Source: a virus
Taxonomy: Duplodnaviria; Heunggongvirae; Uroviricota; Caudoviricetes
Length of the DNA: 64,000 nt
Strand: one strand, 5' to 3'
Virus record (IMG/VR): IMGVR_UViG_3300011972_000167
Below are positions 3,016 to 59,800 of this stretch, in pieces. The translations under genes were made by a program, and so were the position numbers. The first letter of the stretch is position 1. Every line of letters begins with the position of its first letter. The notes under the pieces were generated by a model. The model saw only the letters and a list, made by a program, of their open reading frames with translations, ran no database searches and had not been told where the DNA came from.

Positions 3016-3630
3016 ATGGCACTGATGTCAATAGGAAAATTTGCTAAAGAAATAGGTTTAAGTGTTCAGCATTTAAGAAAGCTTCATGAAGATAATATTT
3101 TAGCTCCTGCTGTAATAACTAAAGGTGGAACTAGGTATTATTCAGATGAACAACTTTCAGAATACTTAAATAAAGATAACAAACCACAACAATTACCTAT
3201 TATACTGTATGCAAGGGTTTCCACTCGAAGTCAAAAAGATGATTTAGATGGACAGGTGGAAAATCTAAAATTGTATGCAATTTCAAAAGGCTATTCTTTT
3301 GAAATAATAACTGATATAGGTAGTGGTATCGATTATACTAAACATGGATTAAAGCAGTTAATTCAGAAAATAAACAATAAAGAGATATCTAAAATAGTAG
3401 TTCTTTATAAAGATAGGCTTATTAGATTTGGTTTTGAATTGATTGAATATCTTTGTGAACTTAATAATGTAGGTATAGAAATAATTGATAACACAACTAT
3501 ATCAAAAGAAACTGAGCTAACAAATGATTTAATTCAAATTATTACTGTATTTGCTAACAGATTGTATGGATCTAGGTCTAAAAAGACATTAAGATTAATA
3601 CAAGAGGTGAAATCAAATGGTAATCATTAA
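3016..3630 (+). CDS. tnpA: IS607-family TnpA: MerR-like HTH fused to serine recombinase (resolvase) catalytic domain
   Basis: N-terminal HTH (SIGKFAKEIGLSVQHLRKL). Resolvase motifs YARVSTRSQ (catalytic Ser), and GSGIDYTKHGL / LIRFGFELIEYLC, shared with the paralog at 34.8 kb. Overlaps downstream tnpB. Confidence 0.75.
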   Translation: MALMSIGKFAKEIGLSVQHLRKLHEDNILAPAVITKGGTRYYSDEQLSEYLNKDNKPQQLPIILYARVSTRSQKDDLDGQVENLKLYAISKGYSFEIITDIGSGIDYTKHGLKQLIQKINNKEISKIVVLYKDRLIRFGFELIEYLCELNNVGIEIIDNTTISKETELTNDLIQIITVFANRLYGSRSKKTLRLIQEVKSNGNH

Positions 3631-4735
3631 AGGATATAAAATTAGATTATTACCTACTTTAGAACAAGAAATACTTATAAAAAAATCAATAGATGTTTCA
3701 AGGTTTGTTTATAACTGGTGTCTAAATAAACAGCTTAGTTCTGATAAATTTATTAGAGATAACGAATTAAGAAAAGAATTAACTAAATTAAAACGAACAG
3801 ACAGTTACTATTGGTTAAATGAAGTAGGTTGTAATGTAATAAAACAATCAGCAAAAGATTTATGTAATACTTACAAGAAATTTTTTAATAAACTATCTAA
3901 TAAACCAAGGTTTAAGAAAAAGGGTGTTCATAATTCATTTTATGTTAATTATGAAACTATGAAAAAGACTAAGCATGGTGTTAGGTGTGAAAAAATAGGT
4001 GATATTAAAACATCTGAAAGATTGCCTAAACTTATACAAGATAAACATTATATGAATCCTCATATAGTTTTTGATGGAAAATATTACTACATAACTTTTA
4101 GTATAGAAATAAATATAGAACTAAAAGAAAATACATCAAAAATTATAGGCATAGATTTAGGAATAAAATCATTTGCAGTATGCTCAGATGGTACTTTTTA
4201 TAAAAATATAAATAAAACGCATACAGTAAAAAAGTTAAATAAAAAATTAAGAAGATTACAACGATGTGTTAGTAAAAAATACCTTAAGAATAAGATGGGT
4301 AATAAATTTATAAAAACAACGAATATTATAAAACTTGAACATAAAATAAAACTTATACATAGAAGAATAAAAAATATTCGTGAAAATTATATTCATCAAA
4401 TAACATCTCACTTGGTGAAAACCAAACCAAGCAGAATAGTTATAGAAGATTTGAATATAAAAGGAATGTTAAAAAACAAGCATTTATCAAAAGCTATTGC
4501 TGAACAGTGCTTTTATAAGTTTATAAGTGTTTTAGGATATAAATGTGATTGGAATAATATAGAACTTTTAAAGGCAGATAGATTTTATCCCTCAAGTAAA
4601 AAATGTTCTTGTTGTGGAAATATTAAAAAAGATTTGAAACTTAAAGACAGAATTTACAGATGTGGTTTTTGTAGTTTAATAATAGATAGAGACTTTAATG
4701 CAAGTCTAAATTTAGCAAATTATAAATTAGCATAA
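3617..4735 (+). CDS. tnpB: TnpB (IS605/IS607 OrfB family RuvC-like RNA-guided nuclease)
   Basis: N-terminal KIRLLPTLEQ...RFVYNWCLN. RuvC-I IGIDLGIKSFAVCSDG. RuvC-II IVIEDLNIKGMLKN. C4 zinc finger CSCCG...CGFC. RuvC-III DRDFNASLNLAN. Confidence 0.85.
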   Translation: MVIIKGYKIRLLPTLEQEILIKKSIDVSRFVYNWCLNKQLSSDKFIRDNELRKELTKLKRTDSYYWLNEVGCNVIKQSAKDLCNTYKKFFNKLSNKPRFKKKGVHNSFYVNYETMKKTKHGVRCEKIGDIKTSERLPKLIQDKHYMNPHIVFDGKYYYITFSIEINIELKENTSKIIGIDLGIKSFAVCSDGTFYKNINKTHTVKKLNKKLRRLQRCVSKKYLKNKMGNKFIKTTNIIKLEHKIKLIHRRIKNIRENYIHQITSHLVKTKPSRIVIEDLNIKGMLKNKHLSKAIAEQCFYKFISVLGYKCDWNNIELLKADRFYPSSKKCSCCGNIKKDLKLKDRIYRCGFCSLIIDRDFNASLNLANYKLA

Positions 4736-4885
4736 AGTTAAAATTAAAAACAATGCTAATATGTACCGTTCGATACACGGGAATTTAAGCCTTTGGAGAG
4801 TTATATCAAACTAAAGTAGCTTTTTAGCAAAATAGGACTCTGTGAACAAGGAAGTTTTAATCGTGAGATGAAACATAGTAAAAAT
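4736..4885 (+). ncRNA. Putative TnpB omega-RNA / right-end structured region of IS607 copy 1
   Basis: Directly 3' of tnpB. Sequence blocks are conserved with the equivalent position of copy 2 (36592-36735) even though the two proteins are only about 50% identical. Ends with ATGAAACATA at 4868-4877. Confidence 0.35.
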
Positions 4886-8313: not shown

Positions 8314-9387
8314 GTGTCAATGGTTTCAAATAATTTAATTATATTAGCCTCTGCTGTAGGTAATTATGGTATAAACAATAGTAATGACATTAATATAGGT
8401 GATAGTTTCAAGTATGAGTACTTCAATCCTATCACATTAAAGTTATTAAACAATTACGGATTTATAAAAATTCTTGTAGCTATAATACTTATAGTATTAG
8501 CCTTTCTTATAATAAAAAATATGATGGGAATACGAAGTATATTTACATCAAAGGCTGTCAGGACAGAGATAGACAACTATAATAACCTTAGAGATAGGGA
8601 TAGTAGAATACTCCATGCTAACAAGTTTATTAGGGGAATAACGGGGTTTATAACAAAAAAAGGTTTTAGAGTAAATCCAGCTTATAAAGAGTACTTTCAG
8701 TATAATTTAGATAGAGCAAATGTCAGGATACCTGGCGGAAGTAGGATATATACTCCTGATGAATTTAACAGCTTAAAAGTGTTGTTTATTTGTTTAGTAA
8801 TACTTATAAGTTTATTAGTTTCTTGGTTTATATCTCCATTCTTTGGTTTTATATTAGCTGTTGTAGTTGGTTCTGCTATAAATATACTTCCAATGATGAT
8901 TATAAGACGAATAGTAGCAGCTAAGGACAGTGAGATAAGAGAAGATTTTCCAGACTTGTATTTGATGATACATTATGAAATAATGAGCGGTGCAAAAACT
9001 CCATTAGCTAAGGCTTTTACTTCTTACAGAAGAGTTACAGACTCCATAGAAATGTTAAAGTTTGTAGATACATCTATAAATATGTTTGAAACTTATGGAG
9101 ATGAAGAGGCTGCCACTAGAATAGCTAAGATTTATAGAGAAATACCTGAAGTTACTAGGTTAATGCGTCTTATAAATCAGTTACATACTGGTGGAGATGT
9201 TAAAAAAGAGTTAAACGGATTTAGGGAACAGATAATAAAGGATAAAAAGTACAGATTAGAGGTTAAAATGAATAAGTTAATTATTAAGGCTAAGATGTCA
9301 TTTTATCTAAGCTATATTGTTTTAGCCCAAGCAATTATAAGTGCTATGGCTTTATTTTTCCCAGATTTGAATTTCTTTAGGCTATAA
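8314..9387 (+). CDS. tadC: TadC-like polytopic inner-membrane platform protein
   Basis: 357 aa with three hydrophobic blocks and a cytoplasmic domain between them. Paralogous architecture to the preceding gene, as in tadB/tadC pairs. Confidence 0.5.
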   Translation: MSMVSNNLIILASAVGNYGINNSNDINIGDSFKYEYFNPITLKLLNNYGFIKILVAIILIVLAFLIIKNMMGIRSIFTSKAVRTEIDNYNNLRDRDSRILHANKFIRGITGFITKKGFRVNPAYKEYFQYNLDRANVRIPGGSRIYTPDEFNSLKVLFICLVILISLLVSWFISPFFGFILAVVVGSAINILPMMIIRRIVAAKDSEIREDFPDLYLMIHYEIMSGAKTPLAKAFTSYRRVTDSIEMLKFVDTSINMFETYGDEEAATRIAKIYREIPEVTRLMRLINQLHTGGDVKKELNGFREQIIKDKKYRLEVKMNKLIIKAKMSFYLSYIVLAQAIISAMALFFPDLNFFRL

Positions 9388-12255: not shown

Positions 12256-13497
12256 ATGAGTTTAATTCAGGCATTTTTGATTGATAATTTTAATTTTAAG
12301 GAGGTAACTAATATAATGTTACATGTTTGTACGGACCAAGGTGCTTCATGCACTAGATATTCAGCAAATAACAGTAAGGTGTATAAGAACCCTAATAACT
12401 TTATTACTGTGGAACCCGATGAGGATATCAGATATATACCACATAGCGATGAGTTTGTTGATAACATGGACTTAACGATTACTAAAGATGGAGATAGTGA
12501 TTTCTTTCCTAAAAGGATACTTGGAGGAACTTTAGCGGATAGGTATTCAAGTTCATCTGTTAAGCCAAGCATGCTTTCAAGCAAGAGCAAGCAACCAGTT
12601 AATTACTATAGCATTATTTCATCAGTTGTGGACTCTATATTGCTTAAAGAGGGTTCATTAAACGGAGAAAATCCTGTAGAGGTAGCCTGCTATATCTGTT
12701 TACCACCAGTGGAAATTACGGGTAATAATGAGAACGAAGATTATGTAAAGGCACAACTTAAAGGAAAGTATACGGTTAAGTTAAACAAGATGGATAAAGA
12801 GATTACTTTTAATATAAGAGAGGTAAGTATTTATCCAGAGAGTGTAATGGCTGTTGTTGCCTTTTTGTTTAATCAAGATGCTACTCAGCGTACAGAGATG
12901 GCTAAGTATAATAAAGGAAATGTACTAAGCTTTGATATAGGTGCAAGTACCTCTGACTTGGTTATAATTAACGATAGAAAGTTTGTGGAGCATTCTGGAT
13001 ATACCTGTAAGCTTGGTGGAAATATTATAGATGACTTGCTTCGTAATGAAATTCGCAGAAAGTTAGGCGTAGAGGTTTCTAACGATGACATAGCCGAGGC
13101 AGTAAGAACAGGTAGACTTGCTTATGGTAGCTCTTATAAAGATGTAAGTGAAGAGTTAAAGAAGTGCAAAAAGCAGTTTGCAAAAATGCTTTTTGAGAAG
13201 ATTCAAAACTATTTTGCTACCAATGGAATGGGATTGCAGTCTATCAAGGCTATATTTATGAGTGGTGGCGGTTCAATGCCATCAAGTTACATAGATGAGT
13301 CTGGTAAAGAGATAGTAACATCTCCGTCTGTTGGTGAGTACATAGATGAGGAGATTAAGAAAGTGTGTGACAGCATAGATATGGTACTATCACCATCTGT
13401 AAATCCTAGAGAGTGCAATATAGTTGGGTTAATACTTAGTATGAATGTTCAGAGAAAGCAATCTCAAATTCAGAACAATAAAAGTAAAAAAGAGTAA
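12256..13497 (+). CDS. Actin-like segregation ATPase (ParM/Alp family)
   Basis: Phosphate-1 MLHVCTDQGASCTRY (DxGxxxxR). Phosphate-2 LSFDIGASTSDLVII. Adenosine/phosphate-3 motif AIFMSGGGSMPS. 413 aa. Confidence 0.55.
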   Translation: MSLIQAFLIDNFNFKEVTNIMLHVCTDQGASCTRYSANNSKVYKNPNNFITVEPDEDIRYIPHSDEFVDNMDLTITKDGDSDFFPKRILGGTLADRYSSSSVKPSMLSSKSKQPVNYYSIISSVVDSILLKEGSLNGENPVEVACYICLPPVEITGNNENEDYVKAQLKGKYTVKLNKMDKEITFNIREVSIYPESVMAVVAFLFNQDATQRTEMAKYNKGNVLSFDIGASTSDLVIINDRKFVEHSGYTCKLGGNIIDDLLRNEIRRKLGVEVSNDDIAEAVRTGRLAYGSSYKDVSEELKKCKKQFAKMLFEKIQNYFATNGMGLQSIKAIFMSGGGSMPSSYIDESGKEIVTSPSVGEYIDEEIKKVCDSIDMVLSPSVNPRECNIVGLILSMNVQRKQSQIQNNKSKKE

Positions 13498-19897: not shown

Positions 19898-20239
19898 TTT
19901 ATTAGTGTAAGCATAGATTAAAAATAATTGATGAGCATTATGTAAAAATCAGTATGCATTATGTAGTTTTATAGCCAATTTTTTAGTTCTAATTTTGGGA
20001 ATTAAATAATAATATAGTAGTAAAATAAATTTAGCTTTTACAAAAATTGTATGCATATAGGTAATTTTTATAGATGCAGTAAGAAAAAATAGAGATGCAT
20101 TCAAAGTCATTTTTTGAGGGTAAAATTTAAGAGTTTAGAATTATAATGTTGGGGATGGTTTAGGTTTATAGGTAGTAAATAGTGTAATAAATTAGTGATT
20201 GTTATTTAAAGTTTATTTTAGGGGATAGTTGTTTTAGTC

Positions 20240-21133
20240 ATGGAAATAACAGATTTTGAAATAAGAGTAGGGTATTTTGCAGAAGATAAAAATAAATCTT
20301 CTGACAGAAAGATAATAGGATATGCTTTTGTAAATTTATTAGAACCTAGCAAAGTATATTGTAAGAAATTCGAGGAAGATTATGGCTTTGGATTGATATT
20401 AAATAAGGATAGTTTTTTAGTAGATCCAAAACTTGAATTAATTGCAGGACTTAAATTAATGTCAGAACTTAGACCTCGAAAAAGGAATGCTAATATTTTT
20501 AATACTGATTGTGAGATAATTGTTAGTAGCGATATTCCTTTAGTGATTGACCATTACCTATATGAAAAAGAGACTACAGACATTTCTTATTTATATAGAG
20601 AATTGCCTATAAAATTAAAGTTTTCATTAGGTAGGATAGAGCCAATGTATGAAAAGATTAGCTTAGATAGTTTTACTCAGGTTATTGAAAAAGATGTAAT
20701 TCCAGAGCATCATAATATAGATGCAGAAGCATTTGACAAAATTAGAGATAAATATTGTAATTTTAAGTCATCGGGAGATTTCATAGTTATAAATAATTGT
20801 TGTTATATTTATAATAACTTGAACTATGGATTCAATGGAGATGTCATATTGGATAGTGATTGTAAGCATTTTGATGTATATACTGATAAGAATATCCCGT
20901 ATGAAGTTAAATCAATAGTATTTCCTAAGGGTATAAAGAGTTGCAGTAGAAAGGTATTTAATAGCTTTAATTATAAAGATGTTAGCTTTTACTTTAGTAA
21001 ACATACAAGTAGGGGTATTTTAGCTAATATGTTAGGATTTAATTTACAAAAATGTGTAGAGCTCAATGAGTATCAGTTTAAGAATTACTTAAATAAGATA
21101 ACATCAGATAATTTTAATTTTAATTTTTACTAG
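20240..21133 (+). CDS. Hypothetical protein
   Basis: 297-aa ORF preceded by a 340-bp non-coding region containing ATGCAT palindromes. Confidence 0.4.
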   Translation: MEITDFEIRVGYFAEDKNKSSDRKIIGYAFVNLLEPSKVYCKKFEEDYGFGLILNKDSFLVDPKLELIAGLKLMSELRPRKRNANIFNTDCEIIVSSDIPLVIDHYLYEKETTDISYLYRELPIKLKFSLGRIEPMYEKISLDSFTQVIEKDVIPEHHNIDAEAFDKIRDKYCNFKSSGDFIVINNCCYIYNNLNYGFNGDVILDSDCKHFDVYTDKNIPYEVKSIVFPKGIKSCSRKVFNSFNYKDVSFYFSKHTSRGILANMLGFNLQKCVELNEYQFKNYLNKITSDNFNFNFY

Positions 21134-21558
21134 ATTACAATTTTTTCGTTACATTTATTTGTTATAGTTATATAGGTAATATAATAAATGGAGGATATAA
21201 AATGAGGGCTAGAAAGAAAAGAATAGTTTATAAGGCATATAACTTTTAATCAAGCAACAGAGCAACTTTTCATTCAGAAAGAAACTCCTATGTGTTTGAG
21301 TAAGGGAAACTGGCTAATTGAAAATGAATTACCTAATGGAAAGAGTGAATTTTGAATAAATTAATAGTTTTTACAAAGTTATTTGGAGTTTATAAAAAGG
21401 TTAAAGATTGATTAGTTTTGGTTTTTAATACATTGAACTTAAATGGATAATTAAAAAGGCACAATTTTTATAGTATTGCTTATAAAGTATGCATAAAAAT
21501 AATATTTTACTGAACTTAATTTTTATACTGAAGATACAATGAAATAAAGGAGAATTAA

Positions 21559-22905
21559 ATGCTGAGACAGAAATATACAACTGTTACTCAACTACATAAG
21601 ATTAATAACAAAGACATTATTGAGTATTTTGAAAATGCTTCTGTATATTTCTGCAAATTACAGAGAAAAGCATTCCATATATTCAAGAATGAAAGTATAA
21701 AAGGAAATAAAGTTGAATATAGCAAATTTAGACAAGTTTTTATGAAAGAACATAATATCAGCAAGAGAACCGCAGACTCTATATTAAAAGATGTTCAAGG
21801 AAAAGTGAAGGCGCTTACTGAATTAAAAAAATACGAAGTTTCCCAAAAGGAGCAGAAAATTAAAAAAATTAAAGAAGAAATTGAAAAACTCGACATTAAG
21901 ATTCTAGAGTTCCAAGAAAAAATGAAAAATAAAATAAAAGTTAATCATTTTAACTATTGGAACTTAAAAAAGTCAAGAGCATTTAAGAAAATGAAGCTGA
22001 ATAAACTTCAGATGAGACTTGAGCAGCTCAGGTGGGAAATAGAAACAGGGCATTATAAGTTATGTTTTGGAACTAAAAAACTTTTAAATTCTGATAAAGA
22101 AAAATTTATTTTACAGCGTGACAGTCAGATGGGATATATTGGGTGTCAAGAAGAAAAAGGAAGAAATAGTGTGTTTCAGTTGAGTTATAATAGTATAAAT
22201 AACCAGTTTCTCATTAAATTAAGGAAAGATTTTGGATTTGATACAGAAGAAAAGTATGTATTTGGAAAATGCTATTTTAATAATCATAAAAACAAACTGA
22301 TAGATGCATTGGAAAATAAAAATTCAACTCCATTGACATATTCAATAAGCAGAAAAAATAGAAGATATTATTTACATTGCACTTTTGAATATAGGATTGA
22401 AAGTAAAGATTTATTTTCAACAAGAAAGGATTACGGAACTATTGGAGTTGATTTTAATAAAGGGTTTTTGACGGTTTCTGAAATAGACAGGAATGGCAAT
22501 CTTGCTAAAACTGACACCCTTAATTATCGCTTTGGAAAAGGAAATAAAACACAATCAGATTTAGAAAATTGTATTTCCAAAATATTAAGAAAAGCTTTAG
22601 AGGTAGGAAAGGATGTGTGCCTTGAAGATTTGAACTTCAATAACACAAAAGCTAAAACAGTGAAAGGTAAAACTGACAAAGGTAAAAAATACAATGATAT
22701 GCTGCATAGTTTGGCATATTCTTTATACGACAAGTTAATAACTAATATTGCTTTTAGAAATAAAATAGGAATTATAAAAGTAAATCCAGCATGGACTAGC
22801 TGGATTGCTAAAAATAAATTTTGTGAAAGAATGAAGTTAAATATACATACAGGAGTAAGTTTTGTAATAGCAAGGCGTGGATTAGGAATTAGAGATATAA
22901 TATAA
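21559..22905 (+). CDS. TnpB-like (RuvC-fold) protein lacking the zinc finger and with a long non-TnpB N-terminal region
   Basis: RuvC-I-like TIGVDFNKGF. RuvC-II-like VCLEDLNFNN. NPAWTSW in place of the TSQ-CxxC region (no CxxC...CxxC). Terminal HTGVSFVIARRG aligns with the RuvC-III DRDFNASLNLAN stretch of the window's TnpBs, but with Gly at the Asp position. N-terminal 290 aa include a K/E coiled coil. Confidence 0.45.
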   Translation: MLRQKYTTVTQLHKINNKDIIEYFENASVYFCKLQRKAFHIFKNESIKGNKVEYSKFRQVFMKEHNISKRTADSILKDVQGKVKALTELKKYEVSQKEQKIKKIKEEIEKLDIKILEFQEKMKNKIKVNHFNYWNLKKSRAFKKMKLNKLQMRLEQLRWEIETGHYKLCFGTKKLLNSDKEKFILQRDSQMGYIGCQEEKGRNSVFQLSYNSINNQFLIKLRKDFGFDTEEKYVFGKCYFNNHKNKLIDALENKNSTPLTYSISRKNRRYYLHCTFEYRIESKDLFSTRKDYGTIGVDFNKGFLTVSEIDRNGNLAKTDTLNYRFGKGNKTQSDLENCISKILRKALEVGKDVCLEDLNFNNTKAKTVKGKTDKGKKYNDMLHSLAYSLYDKLITNIAFRNKIGIIKVNPAWTSWIAKNKFCERMKLNIHTGVSFVIARRGLGIRDII

Positions 22906-23300
22906 AACTTATATTCTGGATAAACTTGTATTCATCCAAGAGAATGGAGCAAGTCACTTTACAGAATTAAAATAAGTAATACATTTCAGTATTGATAAAG
23001 ACTTACATATAAGTGAAATTCTGAAATGATAGGATAACCGTATGTCCTTTAGTACAGTTTGTATTATAAAAATAATCTTGAATAACTTTGGATAAGTTTT
23101 CAAGTTACGGTGTGAGACCTAGTAGTGAGATGCTAAGATTGGCTTTATCTGAAAGGTTTATTAGGATAAACACATTAGAGGGAATGGAATTTTTGCATCT
23201 AGGGCAAGTTTTAGTTAAATGAGTACATGGGGAATTTTATCCTGTACCTCATGAAAAATTTATACAATTATATGATATAGTTAAATAAGGAGGGGATAAA

Positions 23301-24629
23301 GTGGATATTAAAAAGGATAATGGAGAGAGCAGTTCTTCTCAACCTAAAAAGGCTCACAGATTAGATGAGGCAAATATGTGTAAAAATAGGACAGAAGATA
23401 GCGTTGCTTCTCAACCACAGCTTATAAAAAGACACAAATTAGTGACAACAGCTGATGGTAAACTTATAAGAGGTGAAGTAGAGTATGTAGATGCTGATAA
23501 GCTTAAACCTAGAGAAAGTACTAGCACTATTACTAGTAAAAGCATTAAAAAAGATGATAAAACAGATAAACCCTCTTTTGAATTAGCAGGTGACACTACA
23601 AATTATCCAAAAATAACACTAAATAGTGATGGAACTGTTTGTATAGGCGAAGATCCTCTTAGAGATAAGAATAAAGTAATAATAGGTTATGGAGTCAGTA
23701 GTGTAGATTTACCTGCTTCAAAAGTATTTGAGTTAGATAGGCTTGAAGTAAGTGAAGATTGTATTATAAGAGAACTTGTTGAAAATGTAATGATGGATTT
23801 AAGTACTGATGAGATTACTAGGATTCCTATAAATAGACTTAAGCAAAAGGAATTTAATAATTCTGTTTATTGGTGTAGCAATGGATTTTGCTATACAGAT
23901 GTGAAAACTAGAGCTGGATATGAAGAATACAATGTAAATATGCCTTTATATTTAGGGGATACAAAAATATTAAATAAAAAAGAGAAAGGTATTTATTTTA
24001 CTTCAGCAGATAACCTAGGGGATGATGATAATTTATGGGTTCATGATAATTGTAATGTGAGTAGCCTATTAAAATTTAATGGGAAAACTTTTGAACTTTG
24101 TACCCTTTCTTATAATTTTAGCACTAATAATATTGAAGAAATTCCTAAGCCTGTTGGAAAAATGCATTACGACTGGTACGCTAAACTATTGTCTTCTTTT
24201 CCTCAATATAAAGTAGGTTTTATGGGTAATTATTTTATGATAGGAGATAAGGTTTGTATACTTAATAATGATGATAAATATTTCCCTAGATTAAAGGGAA
24301 ATCCTGTAGATGGATGCTTTGTAGTACCTAATGGTTGTGTATCTTTTGGTGCTATATCTCATGAGAATATCAGTAGGTTAACAGCTATAGTATTCCCAGA
24401 GTCTATAAGGGTATGCAATTTTCATATAAGGGCGTATGTTAAAAGAGGATTTCAGTTCTGTTTTAGTTCAAAAACTCCTATAGCAACTATTATAGACATA
24501 TTAAAAATAGAGAGTACACTTAGACTAGAGGGTTACAGTGAGGATGTACTTAACAATATGGATAGATTTGAATTTACAAAAGTATTAGAAAAAGTTATTG
24601 GTAAAGATTATAGAATAGATTTTTATTAA
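23301..24629 (+). CDS. Hypothetical protein
   Basis: 442-aa ORF with RBS AGGAGGGG. First gene of a four-gene run ending in the PolA-domain gene. Confidence 0.4.
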   Translation: MDIKKDNGESSSSQPKKAHRLDEANMCKNRTEDSVASQPQLIKRHKLVTTADGKLIRGEVEYVDADKLKPRESTSTITSKSIKKDDKTDKPSFELAGDTTNYPKITLNSDGTVCIGEDPLRDKNKVIIGYGVSSVDLPASKVFELDRLEVSEDCIIRELVENVMMDLSTDEITRIPINRLKQKEFNNSVYWCSNGFCYTDVKTRAGYEEYNVNMPLYLGDTKILNKKEKGIYFTSADNLGDDDNLWVHDNCNVSSLLKFNGKTFELCTLSYNFSTNNIEEIPKPVGKMHYDWYAKLLSSFPQYKVGFMGNYFMIGDKVCILNNDDKYFPRLKGNPVDGCFVVPNGCVSFGAISHENISRLTAIVFPESIRVCNFHIRAYVKRGFQFCFSSKTPIATIIDILKIESTLRLEGYSEDVLNNMDRFEFTKVLEKVIGKDYRIDFY

Positions 24630-24637
24630 GGAGCCTT

Positions 24638-25123
24638 ATGAATTTAGCGGATACTATTAGAGATAGAAAAGAAGTTCATGTTCCTATTTGGGGTAATGAG
24701 GTATACTCTTACCCCATTCCTGCTAGGGATAAAAATGGAACAATTTACAGAGTATTTATATACACAATAAATAAGGACAATTTATTAGATGCTGGGTTAC
24801 CTTATAGTTTACTAGAGTTCAGTGCAAAAACAGGTGATTTAGTGTCTTATAATAAATTAGAATATGATATTGATAAAGACAGGTTGTTTTTGATATATGC
24901 AAATACAGAGGAATCAATAACGAATAACAGAGATAAAATAATAAGTTTATTTGATAAAGTAAGTGAACTTCATTTATTTTCAGATAGTTTATCAGACAGT
25001 GATGTCATGTTATTAGAGGAGTATGCTAATTTAGTTTTAACTAGTGTACCTCCTAATCATGTATATTATTATAAAAAATATGGAAAGGACTTTTTTAGTT
25101 GGGTAGAAAAACTAACAAAGTGA
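24638..25123 (+). CDS. Hypothetical protein
   Basis: 161-aa ORF, closely packed. Confidence 0.35.
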   Translation: MNLADTIRDRKEVHVPIWGNEVYSYPIPARDKNGTIYRVFIYTINKDNLLDAGLPYSLLEFSAKTGDLVSYNKLEYDIDKDRLFLIYANTEESITNNRDKIISLFDKVSELHLFSDSLSDSDVMLLEEYANLVLTSVPPNHVYYYKKYGKDFFSWVEKLTK

Positions 25124-39166: not shown

Positions 39167-42100
39167 ATGTCAATAAGAAAAAATTTATTAAAAAGATTTT
39201 TAGCATTTAGTTTAGGAATAATAACCAGTTTATCTGTGATAAACCCAATATACGCTTCATCTCTTCCTGATTTTGGAGGGGATGTCAATTCTGGTTCATC
39301 TGGTTCTGAAAGAGCTGGTAGTTGGGCTGAATATGCACATAGATTTTTTGCATATCCTCAAAATCAAGGTATAAGAATGTATTTAGTAAAAGAGGATGGA
39401 AAGCTTGCTTCAGATGCTGTAGATATATTAATAAAGTATCCTTGGGATATAGATACTTGGACTAGTTTCGATGGAGCTCCAAGGTCAGAGTATGAAAAGT
39501 TTAAGTACAGTTTTGGATGGAGAACTTGGGAGCCAGATTGGGAAACCAATAAAAATAGAGGAATTAACAAGGAGAGTAATTTTTGTTATCTAAGTGGTAC
39601 TAAGACTACAGGGTTTAGCGAGAGATATGACTCTTGGAAATTTGATATAAAGAGTAGAGCTTCAAGAATAGGTGGGGGAGACATAAGGTATATTAAATTT
39701 GAAGATTTTAATAGAGAGCTTAGTAAAAAGTTTAATGGAGCTAATTTTGTACCTCCATCTAATTTAGTCGGAGGGCAGTTTACTAACGGAGGTCAGGTTA
39801 TTAATGACTTTCTTAAGAGTAGAACAGCTGATAATAAATTAGGTGCTCAAGTTCTTGTAGATTTAAGATTAGAGGGGCAGTTTGGAGAAGATGGCAGAGG
39901 AATAAGTCATAATGTGTATAACAATGCTGCTGGAAGTGGAACTTATCTATTTAATCTATTAGATACAAATGAAAGACAACTTGTTGATACATCTCAAAAG
40001 ACAGTATCTGCTATTATGAGAGAGAAGAAATATAAATTAGCTCTTGAGCCAATATATTTTATGGTACCAGAGCTAATAAATGTAGAGCCTGGATATAATG
40101 TTTATCCGGAAAATAGAGAATATAGTAATTCTTTTAACTGTGTAATGTATGGTACTACTTCTAGTATATTGAGAACTATTAAAGATATGATAAATTTTTA
40201 TTATAAAAGAGATGGGAATGATGGGAAAGTAGGTTTCTTTTTAAGAACTTCTACAGGTAAACCTAACTTATCTAAGATATTTGTTGGAGGAGATTGGAAT
40301 ACGGGTAATTTAGGTATTTCTACATTTCAAACAGAGAAAGAAGAGAAATTTGGTATAGGAACATCTAATCCTGTAACTATAGCTAAATTTGATGGTGTAC
40401 ATGACATAGACTTCTACGGTAAAAAATATTATTCTTTAGAGAAACTAACTGGACCTTTAGGAGTAAATACAGCAGCCTATCAAGGATATGGAATAATGTT
40501 TTACAGCTTAGATGATATTGGAACTTCGACATCTACATTTGATGAAAAAACTTATGGAAGTAATTATAGAGAGGGTTCAGCCCCTCAAACAACAAATGAT
40601 GATGGAACATTTCCAAGTGAGTATCCATCAGAGGGTACAGCTTATAAAACAGCCAACAGAGACCATAAATTTAGGATTGTTAAGTTTTATAGGGAAATAG
40701 ACGGAGATGGCAATAAGACTTGCCTAAGTAATTTTGTTAGAGAAAATACAGTGCATACTATAAATATAGTAGACGAGGGTGGTTATAAAGTAGATGGTTG
40801 GTTTACTGGGGATAGCAACAAAGTACCAACTAGCCAAAGTGAATGTTATGATACATATAAATCTAGTATACCTAGTATACAAGGTGGGGGTTCGGCTGGT
40901 TCAGTTGTAATACCTCCAGATAGTATTGAAAAAACTTTATATGTTGTTCTTACAAAGAGAATACCTAGACCACCTAAGCAAGTAACAGGAACAGCTTCTA
41001 AATTATTCTTAGAGCAAGATGAGTTGGCTTATACTTATAGCTTTTCAGATATAAGGACTTTATATTCAGTAGGTCATAAAATACCATATAGAAGAACTAT
41101 TACAAAGCGTAATGTATCAATGGATAAGAGCAGTTATAATTATGAAGTAGTTAATACAGAAAATTACGGTAATACAAATTATATAGGTTATAGAGGTAAT
41201 TTTGCTCCAAAAGAAACAGGAACAGTAAGTATAAGTGGAGATATAGATTATAGTATATCAGGAAGAACTTTAAGAATACCATCACAAAGATTAGCTGATT
41301 TATCTCCTAATTTAATGTTCTCTGTTTATAGGGATAAATCCACTGATAGAGTTACGCTATATCCAAAATACAATGATACTGTTAAATCAGAATTAACTCA
41401 AATAGGAATAACTAATGTATCTTATTCTCCAGCTCAAAACAGAGTAGGAAGAACTACTGGAAGTGGCTATTATACTTCTCAGTTCAGAGCTACTTATGGT
41501 TATAAAGTAAAAGACGGTACCATAAGATACAGTTATGATGTTAAAAGAAGTGATGGAAGTTATGACACTGTAAGTAGGAGTTTTAGCATATCTGAGGGTG
41601 TTGGAGTTATAAGTAAGTTAAGAAGTTATTATAATACAGGTATAACTACTAAGTATTACCTTGGAGAAGTTAATAATGGAGTTGAAGAGCCTAAAAGAAC
41701 AAGTAGAGAAAGGTTTGTTATAGGAGGAAAGCAGTTTGGTGGTAATTTATACTATGATTACTCTAAAGTTAACTTAGGTTTTTATCCATTTACTAGAATG
41801 AGATATCATACTGTGGCAGATACAAGTAATAAATTTGCCTTTGTAACTTCAACTAATAAAAGTACAATGTATGGAGTAACAGCAGTAGATAGTGGTGTTT
41901 ACAGGTCAAATCCAAGTTTATATGGAATAGATGTGCAATCAACTCAATGGAGTACACATACAAAAGCTGTGGATGGGTTAGCTAAAATTTTAGGAAGTCA
42001 AGTCCAACCTAGTAAGAGTTTAATACCTGGAGGTGCAACAGTAGACTTAAAATCATCTAATACATCTAGTGAAGCTAGTGAGATATGGCTAGGATTTAGA

Positions 42101-42988
42101 ACATATCAAGTATGTTTACCTGATACTTCCTATGACGCTTATATAGATAAGACAGGAATTGATAAAACCAGTGATGCATTAGCTAAAGGAAAAGCATTTG
42201 CTGATGAGGTTAAGACTGTAGTAACTGGATATAGGGTAGAAAAATTCGCTAAAGAGGGAATAGTAAAAGAGAGTAGCTTTACAGGAATAACCAAAGTTTA
42301 TCCAAGTGGAACTTTTGCAGGTAAGCAATTATCTAATGATCCAAAGTATTATTTAAGAGATGGTGTTGGAACTTCTCAATCTAATTCATTAGATATAATA
42401 GGAGAAGAGCCAGTAACTCAGGTAACTTATAAAGTTTATAAGAACTCTGCAAATAATTTATTAAATTCGAAGTTTGGAGTAATAACGGTTGAAAGAGATG
42501 GTGCTGTTATAGCCAGCGGTAATAAAACTGAGGTATTATCCAATTTAGAGGTTAAGTCTTTAGATAGCAGAACAAAAGTAATAACCAACTTAAATAATGC
42601 TTTAGATAATGGAGGAACTTCTGCTGATAGAAATAATCAGAACTGGTATTATGAGGGAAATGAGCCAATAGAAGTAGTAATGACTACATTTGCTTATCAA
42701 ATAGGTTTTGGTGGAGCAAATACTGTAAGGAGTGAGGTAGTAGACCCTAAGTTAGTTGGTACACTTGATAATAAGGCTGATTTGCTTAACTTTAACGATG
42801 ATACTCTTACTAAAAAGACAAGAACAATACAATACAAATTAAGTTCTGGTAGTGCAAATGCGATGGGAAGTGGAGCTAACTATATGGGAACTTTTAACAA
42901 TATAAAAGTAGTAATACCTGGAATGACGGATGTATTCAAGTCAAGATTGCATTATATGGGTAATAATACTGTTCAAGATTTGAATTAA
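39167..42988 (+). CDS. Giant secreted protein (1273 aa), function unknown
   Basis: Signal peptide LLKRFLAFSLGIITSLSVINPIYASS with RBS AGGAG. No TM after the signal. Followed by a terminator. Confidence 0.5.
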   Translation: MSIRKNLLKRFLAFSLGIITSLSVINPIYASSLPDFGGDVNSGSSGSERAGSWAEYAHRFFAYPQNQGIRMYLVKEDGKLASDAVDILIKYPWDIDTWTSFDGAPRSEYEKFKYSFGWRTWEPDWETNKNRGINKESNFCYLSGTKTTGFSERYDSWKFDIKSRASRIGGGDIRYIKFEDFNRELSKKFNGANFVPPSNLVGGQFTNGGQVINDFLKSRTADNKLGAQVLVDLRLEGQFGEDGRGISHNVYNNAAGSGTYLFNLLDTNERQLVDTSQKTVSAIMREKKYKLALEPIYFMVPELINVEPGYNVYPENREYSNSFNCVMYGTTSSILRTIKDMINFYYKRDGNDGKVGFFLRTSTGKPNLSKIFVGGDWNTGNLGISTFQTEKEEKFGIGTSNPVTIAKFDGVHDIDFYGKKYYSLEKLTGPLGVNTAAYQGYGIMFYSLDDIGTSTSTFDEKTYGSNYREGSAPQTTNDDGTFPSEYPSEGTAYKTANRDHKFRIVKFYREIDGDGNKTCLSNFVRENTVHTINIVDEGGYKVDGWFTGDSNKVPTSQSECYDTYKSSIPSIQGGGSAGSVVIPPDSIEKTLYVVLTKRIPRPPKQVTGTASKLFLEQDELAYTYSFSDIRTLYSVGHKIPYRRTITKRNVSMDKSSYNYEVVNTENYGNTNYIGYRGNFAPKETGTVSISGDIDYSISGRTLRIPSQRLADLSPNLMFSVYRDKSTDRVTLYPKYNDTVKSELTQIGITNVSYSPAQNRVGRTTGSGYYTSQFRATYGYKVKDGTIRYSYDVKRSDGSYDTVSRSFSISEGVGVISKLRSYYNTGITTKYYLGEVNNGVEEPKRTSRERFVIGGKQFGGNLYYDYSKVNLGFYPFTRMRYHTVADTSNKFAFVTSTNKSTMYGVTAVDSGVYRSNPSLYGIDVQSTQWSTHTKAVDGLAKILGSQVQPSKSLIPGGATVDLKSSNTSSEASEIWLGFRTYQVCLPDTSYDAYIDKTGIDKTSDALAKGKAFADEVKTVVTGYRVEKFAKEGIVKESSFTGITKVYPSGTFAGKQLSNDPKYYLRDGVGTSQSNSLDIIGEEPVTQVTYKVYKNSANNLLNSKFGVITVERDGAVIASGNKTEVLSNLEVKSLDSRTKVITNLNNALDNGGTSADRNNQNWYYEGNEPIEVVMTTFAYQIGFGGANTVRSEVVDPKLVGTLDNKADLLNFNDDTLTKKTRTIQYKLSSGSANAMGSGANYMGTFNNIKVVIPGMTDVFKSRLHYMGNNTVQDLN

Positions 42989-54230: not shown

Positions 54231-56873
54231 ATGAATAAAAAGATTAAAAAAATTATACTACTGTTTCCAATAGTTTTTTCTTCTATTGCAACTACTTCTT
54301 GTTCTGTAGGAGTAAATAATTTATTATCATCTTTTCAGTCTACTATACAAAGTAGAATTGCTTGGAATACAGAGCAATTAAACAGGCTTAAGAGTGTAGG
54401 TTTAATTACAGAGGGTATGTATAATGGATTAATAGAGAATATGGCAGCCAGAACTGATAGGTTATCTGAAATAAGTGAGGATAGCTTACAGACTAATGTA
54501 GCTAACATTATAAAACCAAGTTTAGCTTTTTCTATGACAACTACAAGTGACCCTTTTTCTGAAATAACAAGTGGGGATTTATCTAAATATCCTGTATTTG
54601 CTAACTATGTAGCTAATATAGATACAGTTAAAGGTTTATTGGGTAGCAATCCTGGAAATCCAGCAGATGGAATAAAAGCTCTTGAAATATTTGCTTCTAA
54701 GGATACTACTCAAGCAGCTAGTGGACAAAACTTAAATGAGATATTAAAATCCAAGATTTATGTATTAAATGCAGACATAGTAGGTAATGATTTAAGTGAC
54801 ATAGCAATAGCAATGAACACTATAAAAGAGTTAAAAGACAAAAAAGACCTAAAGCCAGATGAAAAAGACAGATTAGATAAAGCAAGAACTTGGTTAGCAT
54901 ACTTCAAAGAAACTGATATGAGTTTATTAGATGGTAACTCAAGCTTAACCAGAATAACTACTCCTAACGACAAAGCTTATGAAATAGCTACAGGTGATTC
55001 TATACCTGATAATTCAGATGAGTCATTAAATAACCCTGAAGATGGTAAGGATTTAGTTATATTTTCTGATACTGTACCTGTAATGGGTTTAAGGGTTCAA
55101 GAATTAGATAATAAAGTTATAGATAACATATTAAAGCAAGTAAATGATGCTGGAGATAGTTATTTAATAGACTATATAAATGGAGATAAGAACCAAGGAG
55201 CTAGAATTTATAAGATGTATTACCCTGTAAGCTATGTAGATAGTGTAAGTTGGGATAGTAATACTTCTAAAACTAAGATAGAAACAAAAGAGAGTGAGTA
55301 TATTAATATTAACATAATGACTGGTAAGGTCAATTTAATTAAGGATAATGATTATTACAAACCAGATGAATTAAAAGAGATAGAGGCTTTATATAATGTA
55401 CTTGGAAACTCTGATAATGAAAGTAGTTTTACTGTTTGGAGTAAGGATAAATTTAAGGAAACTCATAACGGAGTAGAAACTGAGTTTGAGAGCAATACAA
55501 TATTATTAAAAGACTATTTAGAGTATACTTATTTACCTGGATTTATCACTAATGAAAATTATGGTGCATTAGGTAGGAAAATCCGTTTATATGGAATACA
55601 AAACGATGGTTCATTCAAAGATAAAACTATTATAGGAAAGTTTATAGATAAGTTAGGAGCTCCTGTTTCTGGTGCAGAGCCATTAAGATTAGATGATTTG
55701 ATAGATAATAAATCGGGAAATAAAGATAATGATAAAAAAGCCATAAAATTAACTGGTACTTCTGGTGGTGGAACTACCTTAAGAACTCCTGGAGGAACTC
55801 CTATATATTCTGGCGGAACTTGGAGTCAAGTAACTGTAGGAGGTGGTGTTAATACTACCTATTGGACTTATACAAGAGCAGATAATACATTATTGAAAGA
55901 TGGATGGGCTTATATTGATAGCGATGGAGATGGAAAAGCAGAGTGTTATTACTTTGAAAATGGTAAGATGGCATCTTCTAAAACTGTAGATGGATATGAA
56001 TTAAATTCTGATGGACAATGGGTAGAGAATGGAGTTGTTAAACAGTATGATATAGCAGCTAATAATTCTGCTAATAACAATAGTAGTACTGGTTTAGCCT
56101 CTGATATGAATAAAGCTAAGTTTAATAATATAGAGTTTGCAGATACAATACATCCTACTTCTGTGTTTCCTATAAGTTCAAATGATTTTAGTATAGCAGG
56201 TACAGATGGTAAAGAAAATGGAAACCCCAACTCAAGATTGATACATTATGGAATCTTTGTAAATGTCAATCTATATAAATCACAAATGTATAGTGGTTGG
56301 CTAGATACATTAGGAGAGGGTAGTGGAGGCTCTTTGAACTGGTGGAACAGTTGGCTTAGAAAGGCTAAATTTACATACAGCATAGATAAGAATAAACTTG
56401 CTGAATATTTGAATGTTAATTTTACTGCTGACACTACTGACTCTGATAAAGATGCTGTTGTACTAGATAAAAATACATTAATGGCTATACAACAGCAAAT
56501 ATCAAAAGAGACTCGAAATGATTTTATAAATACTATTAGAACTTGGTTTGTGGCTTTAGGATTTATGTGTTTTGTTTATGGGATAGCTTTAGTTGGTGCT
56601 TGGGCTTTAGATGTTAATACTATGTTAGCCTTTAAGCTATTAGGCATATTAACATTTGGAAAGTGTATAGCAGTATCTGATGATATAGATAAGCCCAATA
56701 CAGATAATGGAAAATTATATATGACTTTTGCTGGAGTTATGTTCAGATTAATAGCATTAGCTGGTTTAGGAATAATACTAATAAATGTAGATTTCTTAGT
56801 AGTTGTTGGTAATATGTATAATGCTATAAAGAATTTAACTGATTTTATAAGTAAAGGTTTATTTGGAGCGTAG
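54231..56873 (+). CDS. Large lipoprotein (880 aa) with cell-wall-binding repeats and a C-terminal membrane domain
   Basis: Lipobox-like SSIATTSC. CW-binding repeat TYWTYTRADNTLLKDGWAYIDSDGDGKAECYYFENGKMAS...NSDGQWVENG. Four or so C-terminal TM helices. Confidence 0.5.
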   Translation: MNKKIKKIILLFPIVFSSIATTSCSVGVNNLLSSFQSTIQSRIAWNTEQLNRLKSVGLITEGMYNGLIENMAARTDRLSEISEDSLQTNVANIIKPSLAFSMTTTSDPFSEITSGDLSKYPVFANYVANIDTVKGLLGSNPGNPADGIKALEIFASKDTTQAASGQNLNEILKSKIYVLNADIVGNDLSDIAIAMNTIKELKDKKDLKPDEKDRLDKARTWLAYFKETDMSLLDGNSSLTRITTPNDKAYEIATGDSIPDNSDESLNNPEDGKDLVIFSDTVPVMGLRVQELDNKVIDNILKQVNDAGDSYLIDYINGDKNQGARIYKMYYPVSYVDSVSWDSNTSKTKIETKESEYININIMTGKVNLIKDNDYYKPDELKEIEALYNVLGNSDNESSFTVWSKDKFKETHNGVETEFESNTILLKDYLEYTYLPGFITNENYGALGRKIRLYGIQNDGSFKDKTIIGKFIDKLGAPVSGAEPLRLDDLIDNKSGNKDNDKKAIKLTGTSGGGTTLRTPGGTPIYSGGTWSQVTVGGGVNTTYWTYTRADNTLLKDGWAYIDSDGDGKAECYYFENGKMASSKTVDGYELNSDGQWVENGVVKQYDIAANNSANNNSSTGLASDMNKAKFNNIEFADTIHPTSVFPISSNDFSIAGTDGKENGNPNSRLIHYGIFVNVNLYKSQMYSGWLDTLGEGSGGSLNWWNSWLRKAKFTYSIDKNKLAEYLNVNFTADTTDSDKDAVVLDKNTLMAIQQQISKETRNDFINTIRTWFVALGFMCFVYGIALVGAWALDVNTMLAFKLLGILTFGKCIAVSDDIDKPNTDNGKLYMTFAGVMFRLIALAGLGIILINVDFLVVVGNMYNAIKNLTDFISKGLFGA

Positions 56874-56884
56874 GGAGGTATATT

Positions 56885-59800
56885 TTGAGAAATTTAGATA
56901 AATTTAAGTTAAGGGTAGCCAGCTTTTTTCTTGTCAGTGCTAATATATTAAACTTAATAGCCCCTATACAAGTTAAGGCAGTTGACTTCAGTTCTCAATT
57001 AAGCAGTAATGAAGCTTTAGGTTCTCCTTTGTTAAATGAAAGTACTTGGGAAGAGGGAGATTGGAACAGATGGGAAACAGTTGCTTTTGGAGTATTTTTA
57101 AGTAATTTCCCTGTACCTTTTGTAGATGATTATATGACATCCTTTCAAGATACTGGAGCAGGCTCGAACGGATACGGATTAAACGCATTGAAATACGGTA
57201 GTGGAAATGACAGTCAAGCAAATAAGGTTTTAACTAATCTTTTAAGTTTTGCAATAAAAGACCAATCGCAATCTTTATCTAATATAAAGGTGAGATATCA
57301 TAAAATAGATAATCATTTTGTAGATAGTTTAGAGGGAGAGTTAAAAGATGATGGAGCAGATGCCAAGTTAAAGGATTTGTTTATTGGCATAGGGGATGGT
57401 GGAGATACTGAACCACATATTAAAAGAACAACTGTAGATGATAGTTCTTTTACTCAAACTTTTAAGTATTTTTCTTTCGATGAAATGGTTTTGCCTGAAT
57501 TTTATATTACTACCACTAACGGACCTGTCCAGATATTTGATTACAGGGATGGCTATGATATACAGATGTTTTCTTTGACTTTAGCTAGGGCAGCTAACTC
57601 AATACATAAAGAAAAAGTAATATCAACTATAGATTCTACGATGGAAAGTCCTATAGGATTTGATGTTTATGGGAATATATGTATACAGAATGATGGTAAA
57701 AACATAGTAGTACTTCCAGCTTCAGCTAATCAACATTTAACAAATGAAAAACAATATAATTTACTTACTTCTACCATGATGCTTGGTTCTTATACTTCTA
57801 AAAGCGGAGATGGATTAGTAGGGGATTTCCTTAGTAATAGGAGAGGAACTTTGGAAGGCATTACTTCTAATGGAGGCGGTGGTTTAGTCTATACCTCTTT
57901 AGATAGAGATGACTTAGGAAAAGTTATAATGTATAGTGATACTGATGTTTCTCTGTATCAATTAGCTAAGTCAAAAGTAACTGTAGATAAAAGCTTTACT
58001 GATATTCTGAAAGAGTATGTAGGAGATAAGGATACTTTTGGTTTTGTTACTGGCGAGGCTATATATGAACTTGCCAACGCTGATTCTATAGATAATAAGA
58101 TAGGATTACCATTCAAAATAGAAGTGATTGGTACTGAGGGAGATGTAACTTGGATGGATAAGGTACTTAACGGTCTTAGTTCTGCCAGTTCAACATCTTC
58201 TGATAAAATAACGAATACAGTTAAAGCAAGTAATTTTTTAGCTAACATATACCCAACTAAACCAACTAACAATATACTTAATAATATGTTTACTCTATCT
58301 GGTAAGGCAACACTGTTCGGAGAGTCAGATAAGCAGTATATGGGTGTAGGAATGAGGTCGGGTAACGGATTAAGAGTTTATGCCAGATACATTAACTACG
58401 CATTGAAATATCTTAACACTAAGGTAGTTAGAAATATATCTGGTACTACTTCTTCAAATTGGGGAGTACCTAGCCAATCAGACTTTGTAAGTAGAGTAAG
58501 AGGTGCTAAAGACCCAAAAGAGGCGGCTCAGGCTATATTTTCTAATGTATCTCCTGTAACTGGAGATGCTTTAGGTGATACTATGCCAATGAATGGGCTG
58601 TTCAAACATTGGGCTGTTTATGAGAGTGGATATGCTAAAGGAAAGAACTATTCAGATAATAAGATAGCTAACTTAAAAGCACAAGATACTTATTCCAGTG
58701 GTGGATTATTCTTTGGAAATGATTTTCAGAATTTAACTAATATACAAGGAATAGGTGAAATGCAAGATAGCTTTTTTAGAACCGCTGCTTTATATGGTTT
58801 TAACAGTTCAGCTATAACAGCTTCTAATGTATTAAATGTAGTAGAGGGAACTGAATTTGCAAGCTTTACTCCTTATATTTATTTATCTTACTTAACTTTT
58901 TACGGTGTAGTAGATGGCAAGAGTTATTTTAATCCTAACATATTTACTGGTGATTTACTAGCAAGAAAAGGTGAGGATATAGCAAAAGGTGCTGTATTAA
59001 CTGCCGAGGCTAAAAAAGAGTTAATGGAAAATTATATGTTTAACTTATTAGACCCTGAAAGTGGAGCAGAGTACAGAAAGAAATTAATAAGTAACTTCAT
59101 GACTGAATTTTTATATGATAATTATAGAAAGATAGTTTATGGGAATACTGAGGGTTATATTGCCAGTGCTGTTAGTTCCAGTGGGGATGAGGGATTTTTA
59201 AGAGTTAATACTATCAGTGAAAATATGTTTATTGGCGGATTAGCCAAGTTTTATGTTAAAAATTTCTTAGTTATATTTGCTGTACTATTGTTAGTAGCTT
59301 TTATAATGGCAATATTCAGTGGGCATGGAATACTTAAGATAGTAGGAATAACAATACTATTTGCTGTAACAATGGCTATGAGTCCTACTTTACTTGATAT
59401 TACACCTGCAATATGTAATAGAGTAGTGCAAGACTTGTTTTCTTCTAATATGACTTATTGGGCTATAGCAGAAAGTATAGATAGTGATAGAATAGATGTA
59501 GCTAATGGAGCAGACAATGAAAAAGAGGTAAATACATTCATAAGAATGTTGAATATCTCACAATATGACAAAACAATATTAATAAAGAACGACATATCAA
59601 AAAAGGTAGTTGAAACAATACCTGGAGTTGATATGACAAAGATACAAAGATTGAAAACTACCAGATGGATATTCCCAATGTTAATGAGGCAATTTAGTGC
59701 AAATGATGGTTCTGCTGATTATGTATCAGTACCTTTAATAGACCAATATAGGAATATGCATAACTTATATTGGCTATATAGGAGCAATGATAAAATTAAA

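Follow-up and report, generated by a model that had tools for sequence, protein, structure and literature searches.

Results

The locus and its host phage

The window, by which we mean the whole stretch of 64,000 nucleotides that was analysed, has a GC content of about 29%, and nearly all of its long open reading frames (ORFs) share one strand. Its source is a large uncultured phage. The syntenic contigs, 165-279 kb in length, come from human-associated metagenomes. When the GenBank phage collection was searched at the DNA and protein levels, no match was obtained either to the element described below (positions 20000-25000) or to the large neighbouring ORF of 1273 aa. Annotation of the phage is very poor: at positions 12256-13497, 39167-42988 and 54231-61906 of the window, a ParM/actin-like protein was recognised, and the ORFs of 1273, 880 and 1673 aa are without Pfam match.

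The ORF at 21559-22905 (+) was confirmed in the window. It is intact and encodes a TnpB-like protein of 448 aa, whose key residues are D298, E356 and H430. The left end of the element lies at 21458-21558 (+), with a boundary that is approximate to about ±40 bp; it begins with GG at 21458-21459, followed by a conserved leader of ~100 bp which includes the ribosome-binding site AAAGGAG. Downstream of the gene, an ωRNA-type scaffold belonging to Rfam family RF03065 (IS605-orfB-I RNA) is found at 22915-23114 (+), and the right terminus, TTACGG, at 23105-23110 (+), constitutes the last bases common to all copies. The adjacent flanking phage DNA at 23111-23130 (+) contains a putative guide segment, TGTGAGACCTAGTAGTGAGA, the length of which is taken by analogy with TnpB.

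Protein family and RuvC residues

Comparison of the 448-aa protein with Pfam and PHROGs gave nothing significant, and NCBIfam gave a weak match to TIGR01766 (TnpB-related, E 1e-3) over residues 340-414. The protein is no orphan: a word-indexed protein search returned 4498 matches, the best 120 of which were all 448-449 aa long and 81-99% identical. When representatives at 50% identity were searched exhaustively, 1352 clusters were obtained at E ≤ 1e-3. Since the matches typically span residues ~5-446, the N-terminal 290 residues are integral to the family; the first-pass annotation of this DNA had described them as a "non-TnpB" extension.

Conservation was followed in an alignment of 60 sequences, 24-85% identical to the window protein. 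D298, in the RuvC-I motif TIGVDFN, is kept in 59 relatives, E356, in the RuvC-II motif VCLEDLNF, in all 60, and H430 in 59/60; N300 and R439 are each found in 59/60 as well. The RuvC-I and RuvC-II stretches align with those of the window's canonical TnpB (hhalign, E 1.6e-4), which confirms the earlier reading of TIGVDFNKGF and VCLEDLNF as these two motifs. In the same comparison, the counterpart of NPAWTSW is the TS motif, which in canonical TnpB stands ahead of the zinc finger. A CxxC after this motif (after residue 405) is present in 0/60 relatives, and the distance from the TS motif to H430 is only ~14 residues. The zinc finger is thus lost, as had been proposed.

The C-terminal consensus of the family reads KVNPAYTSxIGxxKYxxxxKLNxHxxAAYVIARRGQGxxD. 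Judged from sequence, His430 occupies the place of the catalytic Asp in the RuvC-III motif of TnpB and Cas12, D-x-N-A-A-x-N-I-A-R-x-G, the register being inferred from the shared AA-x-x-I-A-R-x-G motif rather than from a superposition of residues. The loss of the RuvC-III Asp had therefore been correctly noticed, but the Gly that was thought to replace it came from a register off by two. Another acidic residue, Asp446 (22894-22896), is situated three residues from the C-terminus; it is conserved in 52/60 relatives and replaced by Glu in two more. It could be a relocated or compensating catalytic carboxylate in a rearranged RuvC site. Purifying selection acts on the gene, dN/dS being 0.12-0.18 in ten pairs and 0.14-0.18 when the window gene is compared with its relatives.

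Predicted fold

An AlphaFold2 model built on the family alignment (pLDDT 93, pTM 0.82) displays the order of elements of TnpB. A predicted WED strand (residues 2-11) is followed by a predicted enlarged helical REC (residues 18-187) with two long helices, 69-123 and 130-163, then by a β-rich block of predicted WED strands (residues 190-280) and by a predicted RNase-H-like RuvC domain (residues 289-441). In the model, the last RuvC helix (429-441) has His430 at its beginning, and a single helix, 413-425, replaces the zinc finger.

With Foldseek, the top match was AsCas12f (E 3e-8), followed by CasX, Casλ, Fanzor2 and TnpB. In a PDB profile search, the best sequence match was Cas12m. Homology to TnpB/Cas12, that is, a RuvC fold with WED and REC, was confirmed in this way. 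The coiled-coil N-terminus had also suggested a TIGR-Tas or Nop-domain protein, which was ruled out by the fold searches.

The downstream RNA and the putative guide

Directly 3' of the tnpB-like gene, the segment 22915-23114 (+) was identified by cmscan as RF03065 with 119.5 bits (gathering score 94.2; E 2e-26), over model positions 1-214 of 214. The same RNA, again above the gathering score, follows the gene in 10 further loci that were tested. It contains five stem regions, and the Rfam structure includes a long-range helix formed by ACCGUA (23037-23042) and UACGGU (23106-23111). Through UACGGU, the transposon terminus takes part in this helix, the last one ahead of the guide. A subterminal hairpin (23077-23104) stands just ahead of the element end.

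Covariation was examined on an alignment of 40 distinct 3' tails with its own consensus structure. Compensatory changes were observed in 37/47 base pairs, and 96% of the cells were paired, vs 79% in column shuffles; none of 500 shuffles reached the observed values. When the partners were slid by 1-3 columns, pairing fell to 30-47%. Relatives differ by whole hairpin insertions, for instance a 28-nt stem-loop in locus L001. A 35-nt stretch of L001 that is absent from the window was considered as a variable guide or spacer, and this was ruled out, as a homologous stretch occurs in L125 and the 35 nt lie in the loop of the subterminal hairpin.

We conclude that the RF03065 RNA is the predicted ωRNA scaffold of the window TnpB. 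The suggestion that the downstream DNA encodes a guide-RNA scaffold is hence supported by both the Rfam match and the covariation, although not for the whole of 22906-23300, since only ~205 of these 395 bases belong to the element. An RF03065 RNA was also detected at 9031-9305 (-) of L125, with 96.9 bits, in a locus where no TnpB-like ORF was detected; scaffold and right end seem to be present there as a solo or MITE-like copy.

These data bear on the idea, also put forward at first, that the gene is a decaying and functionless tnpB remnant of an IS1341-type element. The absence of an adjoining tnpA and the atypical catalytic and zinc-finger motifs would agree with such a remnant. However, the ORF is intact and has the standard length of its family (448-449 aa), its dN/dS lies at 0.12-0.18, the same architecture is shared by 1352 clusters of relatives, and the RNA has accumulated compensatory changes. 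Decay is therefore a highly improbable explanation, and we have abandoned it.

In TnpB systems, the stretch immediately past the right end acts as the guide; it follows the scaffold-guide boundary, where conservation falls (PMC10278001). By analogy with characterised TnpB systems, the flank from 23111 to ~23130 would be the guide. For its first 18 nt (23111-23128), no second match was found in the window with up to 3 mismatches, so targeting of the element's own site (retention or homing) fits better than regulation of another window locus.

Copies, contexts and ends of the element

An 84% identical protein, P0024, is encoded in other surroundings, next to a ribonucleotide-reductase gene that is split. 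When the window was compared with this locus by BLAST, DNA similarity was restricted to 21496-23087, or extended to 23110 if a loop insertion of 35 nt was allowed. Close relatives in L008, L176 and L191 lie each in other contexts again, and relatives that are 76-85% identical occupy at least five different contexts. When seven neighbour genes of the window were searched by tblastn against all fetched loci, none was found outside the syntenic contigs.

A scan of viral contigs gave 74 loci, on contigs of up to 398 kb, many of them of 100-400 kb. Several single contigs carry 3-5 copies, with five on UViG_3300045988_173726. Between copies, a DNA similarity of 70-91% is confined to ~1.5-1.7 kb and comprises the ORF with 10-110 bp upstream and ~225-240 bp downstream; copies within one genome are ~80% identical. 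The first-pass annotation had stated that multiple identical copies with terminal structures would speak for an active IS rather than for its own reading. Multiple copies with terminal structures are indeed present, but they are 70-91% similar at the DNA level and not identical.

The ends of the element, described at first as not obvious, become sharp upon comparison of copies. In a sister subfamily, 14 copies all end in …TTTCTAGTTACGG (GTTACGG) with complete divergence after the GG, and the same sharp right end was observed between the window and L001 and L008. In most loci, TTACGG is found 200-245 nt past the stop codon. On the left side, the 14 sister copies start after a G-rich or GG junction, and the similarity of the window to L001 and L008 sets in between ~21441 and 21496 and continues into the ORF. 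From the ends of the sister subfamily, the right end of the window element was placed at 23110 and its left end near 21458, with GG at or near both ends. IS607 elements use a GG core. Taken together, these comparisons at the sequence level indicate that the gene family is mobile.

An empty site was looked for and not found: the 442-aa downstream neighbour was without relatives in the viral contigs, and exact-protein look-ups of two neighbours yielded only element-carrying contigs; all near-identical phage contigs carry the element. A metagenome scan with GGATAACNGTATGTCC was unspecific, and among the matches listed only L125, L176 and L191 were genuine.

Several further features were noticed around the copies. 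L207 and L209 (Logan SRR1779497) are contigs of one assembly that stop in or just past the element, as repeats do. At ~2855-2900 of L032, a second right-end terminus, TTTCTAGTTACGG, stands ~28 bp upstream of the left end of the copy, which suggests an insertion beside an existing end or tandem copies. At 6148-7552 of L001 (also in L002 and L003), the element is beside a ribonucleotide-reductase small-subunit gene split into ORFs of 118, 51 and 189 aa; an intron, an intein or a further insertion may account for the split. Finally, the copies at 4583-7263 of L024 and 618-2917 of L012 adjoin phage tRNA arrays, L024 having 13 tRNA matches together with a RAGATH-18 RNA at 4801-4879.

Probable affiliation with IS607

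No tnpA adjoins the window copy, as had been noted from the start. In L176, which encodes a 77% identical protein, an ORF with a MerR helix-turn-helix and a resolvase domain ends 11 bp before the tnpB-like gene, and an IS607 serine-recombinase tnpA is also found directly upstream in L062, L073, L075, L077 and L039. Furthermore, the right terminus in the window, …TTTTCAAGTTACGG, resembles the termini of the resident IS607 elements, …TTTTCAGTAACGG and …TTTTTCGTATCGG. On the left side, convincing similarity to the left ends of the resident IS607 elements is absent. From the absence of tnpA here, its presence upstream in relatives and the likeness of the right termini, the element would therefore be a tnpA-less derivative of IS607 type, depending on a recombinase provided in trans.

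The window itself contains two canonical IS607 units, at 3016-4853 and 34745-36715, each composed of tnpA (MerR + resolvase) and an overlapping tnpB. The latter encode proteins with the Pfam domains OrfB_IS605 and TNB, and the units contain RAGATH-18 RNAs (RF03064) at 4790-4853 and 36642-36715. It was with these TnpBs that the first-pass annotation had aligned the 448-aa protein. The two TnpAs of the window are 31-32% identical to the TnpA of L176, the closest tnpA-bearing relative; that they mobilise the element in trans is a guess on our part.

Proposed assignment to clade RIIIr-4

Five major TnpB clades were defined by Altae-Tran et al. (PNAS 2023; PMC10691335). Among them, clade RIIIr-4 is characterised by a RuvC-III Asp replaced by His, by the lack of a C4 zinc finger and by enrichment in viruses, and the conservation of the change was taken by these authors as a sign of retained activity (PMC10691335). 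One RIIIr-4 ortholog, no. 39 from Nocardiopsis dassonvillei, was tested by Nety et al. (CRISPR J 2023; PMC10278001). Its ωRNA processing site was clear, but row 39 of Supp. File 2 (PMC10278001) records a negative outcome ("N") for this protein when screened for a TAM on dsDNA.

The profile of the window family matched ortholog 39, which is labelled RIIIr-4, with an hhalign probability of 99.0% and an E value of 6.7e-18 over 241 columns, this match covering the first 399 aa of the protein. In addition, a representative of the Nety et al. tree (clade unlabelled here) was matched to the window protein by BLASTP with an E value of 1e-20 and shares the tail KVNPAWTS...H..AAYV.GRRGLG. On account of the profile and BLASTP matches and of the three defining features, the 448-aa protein is assigned, from its sequence, to the catalogued clade RIIIr-4 as a TnpB with a predicted D-E-H site.

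The result for ortholog 39 brings in two readings of what such a protein does. According to the first, it would be a TnpB-derived, RNA-guided DNA binder resembling TldR or Cas12m: with His at RuvC-III and without zinc finger and TNB domain, it would have lost dsDNA cleavage, and the ribonucleoprotein (RNP) would repress or mark its target instead. RuvC-III Asp and zinc finger are both missing, the sole RIIIr-4 ortholog tested processed its RNA without cleaving dsDNA, and the best PDB sequence match is Cas12m, a non-cutting binder (PMC10691335). Nevertheless, D298, E356 and H430 are near-invariant in relatives that are only 25-50% identical to the window protein, which is unexpected for a dead site. 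Moreover, the family is multi-copy, has transposon ends and tnpA-linked relatives and is found in many contexts, whereas TldRs are immobile and linked to their target gene; and for the candidate guide (first 18 nt) the window offers no second match. We consider a binder of this kind unlikely. The more specific proposal of the first-pass annotation, a regulator of the TldR class, is contradicted by the varied contexts (at least five), the 3-5 copies per contig, the defined ends, the IS607 tnpA of relatives and the near-invariance of D-E-H.

According to the second reading, the protein would be an RNA-guided enzyme whose substrate is not dsDNA but, for instance, ssDNA, RNA or a nick in phage DNA under replication; this change of substrate would then be reflected in the D-E-H site and in the loss of TNB. 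This would agree with the conservation of the rearranged site and with the behaviour of ortholog 39, negative in the dsDNA screen and yet able to process its RNA, and altered substrates have been raised for such clades by the authors of PMC10278001 and PMC10691335. The remaining anatomy, on the other hand, is that of a standard TnpB/ωRNA transposon, and a change of substrate seems to us doubtful.

Discussion

The best explanation of these results is that the region ~21458-23110 of the window is a non-autonomous, tnpA-less element of IS607 type, with a RIIIr-4 TnpB (D298, E356, H430) and an RF03065 ωRNA scaffold, residing in a large phage; we hold this to be probable. Family membership, RNA structure, element ends, the multiple contexts and copies, and purifying selection are directly supported by the data. 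Expression, guide use and mobilisation in trans are presumed, as is cleavage by the D-E-H site of the window protein.

For such an element, the following mechanism can be proposed. Gene and RNA would be carried on one transcript, of which the protein would bind, and probably trim, the 3' scaffold, the last scaffold helix including the terminus UACGG. The transcript would continue from 23111 into the flanking DNA, and this flank would serve as the guide. The RNP may then recognise the same sequence at an element-free site, such as one left by excision or one present in a co-infecting phage, where its action would help the element to be retained or copied through recombination, as has been shown for canonical TnpB. 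Movement to a new site would need an IS607 serine recombinase in trans, such as the one carried upstream in relatives or the two encoded by the phage in its other IS607 copies.

A bolder variant can also be formulated, in which the zinc-finger-less D-E-H TnpBs, multiplied as they are in these large phages, do not cut dsDNA in the ordinary way. Guided by their ωRNA, they would act on a nick, ssDNA, RNA or replicating phage DNA, or would steer the IS607 recombinase, Asp446 completing the rearranged site. We regard this as a long shot. If true, steering of the IS607 recombinase would represent a distinct RNA-guided mechanism of homing or competition for phage-borne IS607 elements.

TnpB clade RIIIr-4, Rfam family RF03065 and IS607-type elements were known already, and under the preferred explanation of a tnpA-less IS607-type element the locus is a further member of them. 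That zinc finger and RuvC-III Asp have been lost is here no mark of a dead, domesticated TnpB; it marks a whole clade which appears still mobile and is under selection. For a clade without demonstrated activity, the phage copies are good material for testing the D-E-H RuvC site, with the useful traits of compact 448-aa proteins, no zinc finger, a well-delimited scaffold of ~200 nt and many natural variants.

Comparison with known systems

Like clade RIIIr-4 and its ortholog 39, the window protein has the RuvC-III Asp replaced by His, lacks a C4 zinc finger and occurs in a virus. It differs from the actinobacterial ortholog 39 by its shorter length (448 vs 529 aa), by its scaffold (~200 nt, RF03065, vs 466 nt) and by belonging to a multi-copy family of AT-rich large phages with IS607 tnpA in some copies; in contrast to RIIIr-4 systems, no RHH/MazE partner is present at the window element.

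With canonical IS607, the element has in common the serine-recombinase tnpA upstream (in relatives), the GG at or near both ends and a similar right terminus. Unlike canonical IS607, the window copy is devoid of tnpA, neither zinc finger nor Pfam OrfB/TNB signatures are found in its TnpB, and its RNA is RF03065, whereas the resident IS607 copies have RAGATH-18 (RF03064).

The RNA agrees with RF03065 in its full-length match over the curated threshold, its position directly 3' of tnpB and its helices. Its score lies at the low end (119 bits vs 160-196 in sister subfamilies), and the window lineage is without part of the central multi-stem, while L001 and similar relatives have hairpin insertions.

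Compared with Cas12f and ISDra2 TnpB (8dzj, 8h1j), the window protein has no TNB/zinc-finger domain, its predicted REC is larger by the two long helices 69-123 and 130-163, and the third catalytic Asp is changed to His. Finally, with TldR it shares an origin from TnpB, an altered RuvC C-terminus and a predicted guide RNA encoded 3' of the gene; but whereas TldRs are immobile and linked to their target gene, the window gene belongs to a multi-copy and apparently mobile family with transposon ends and a conserved D-E-H.
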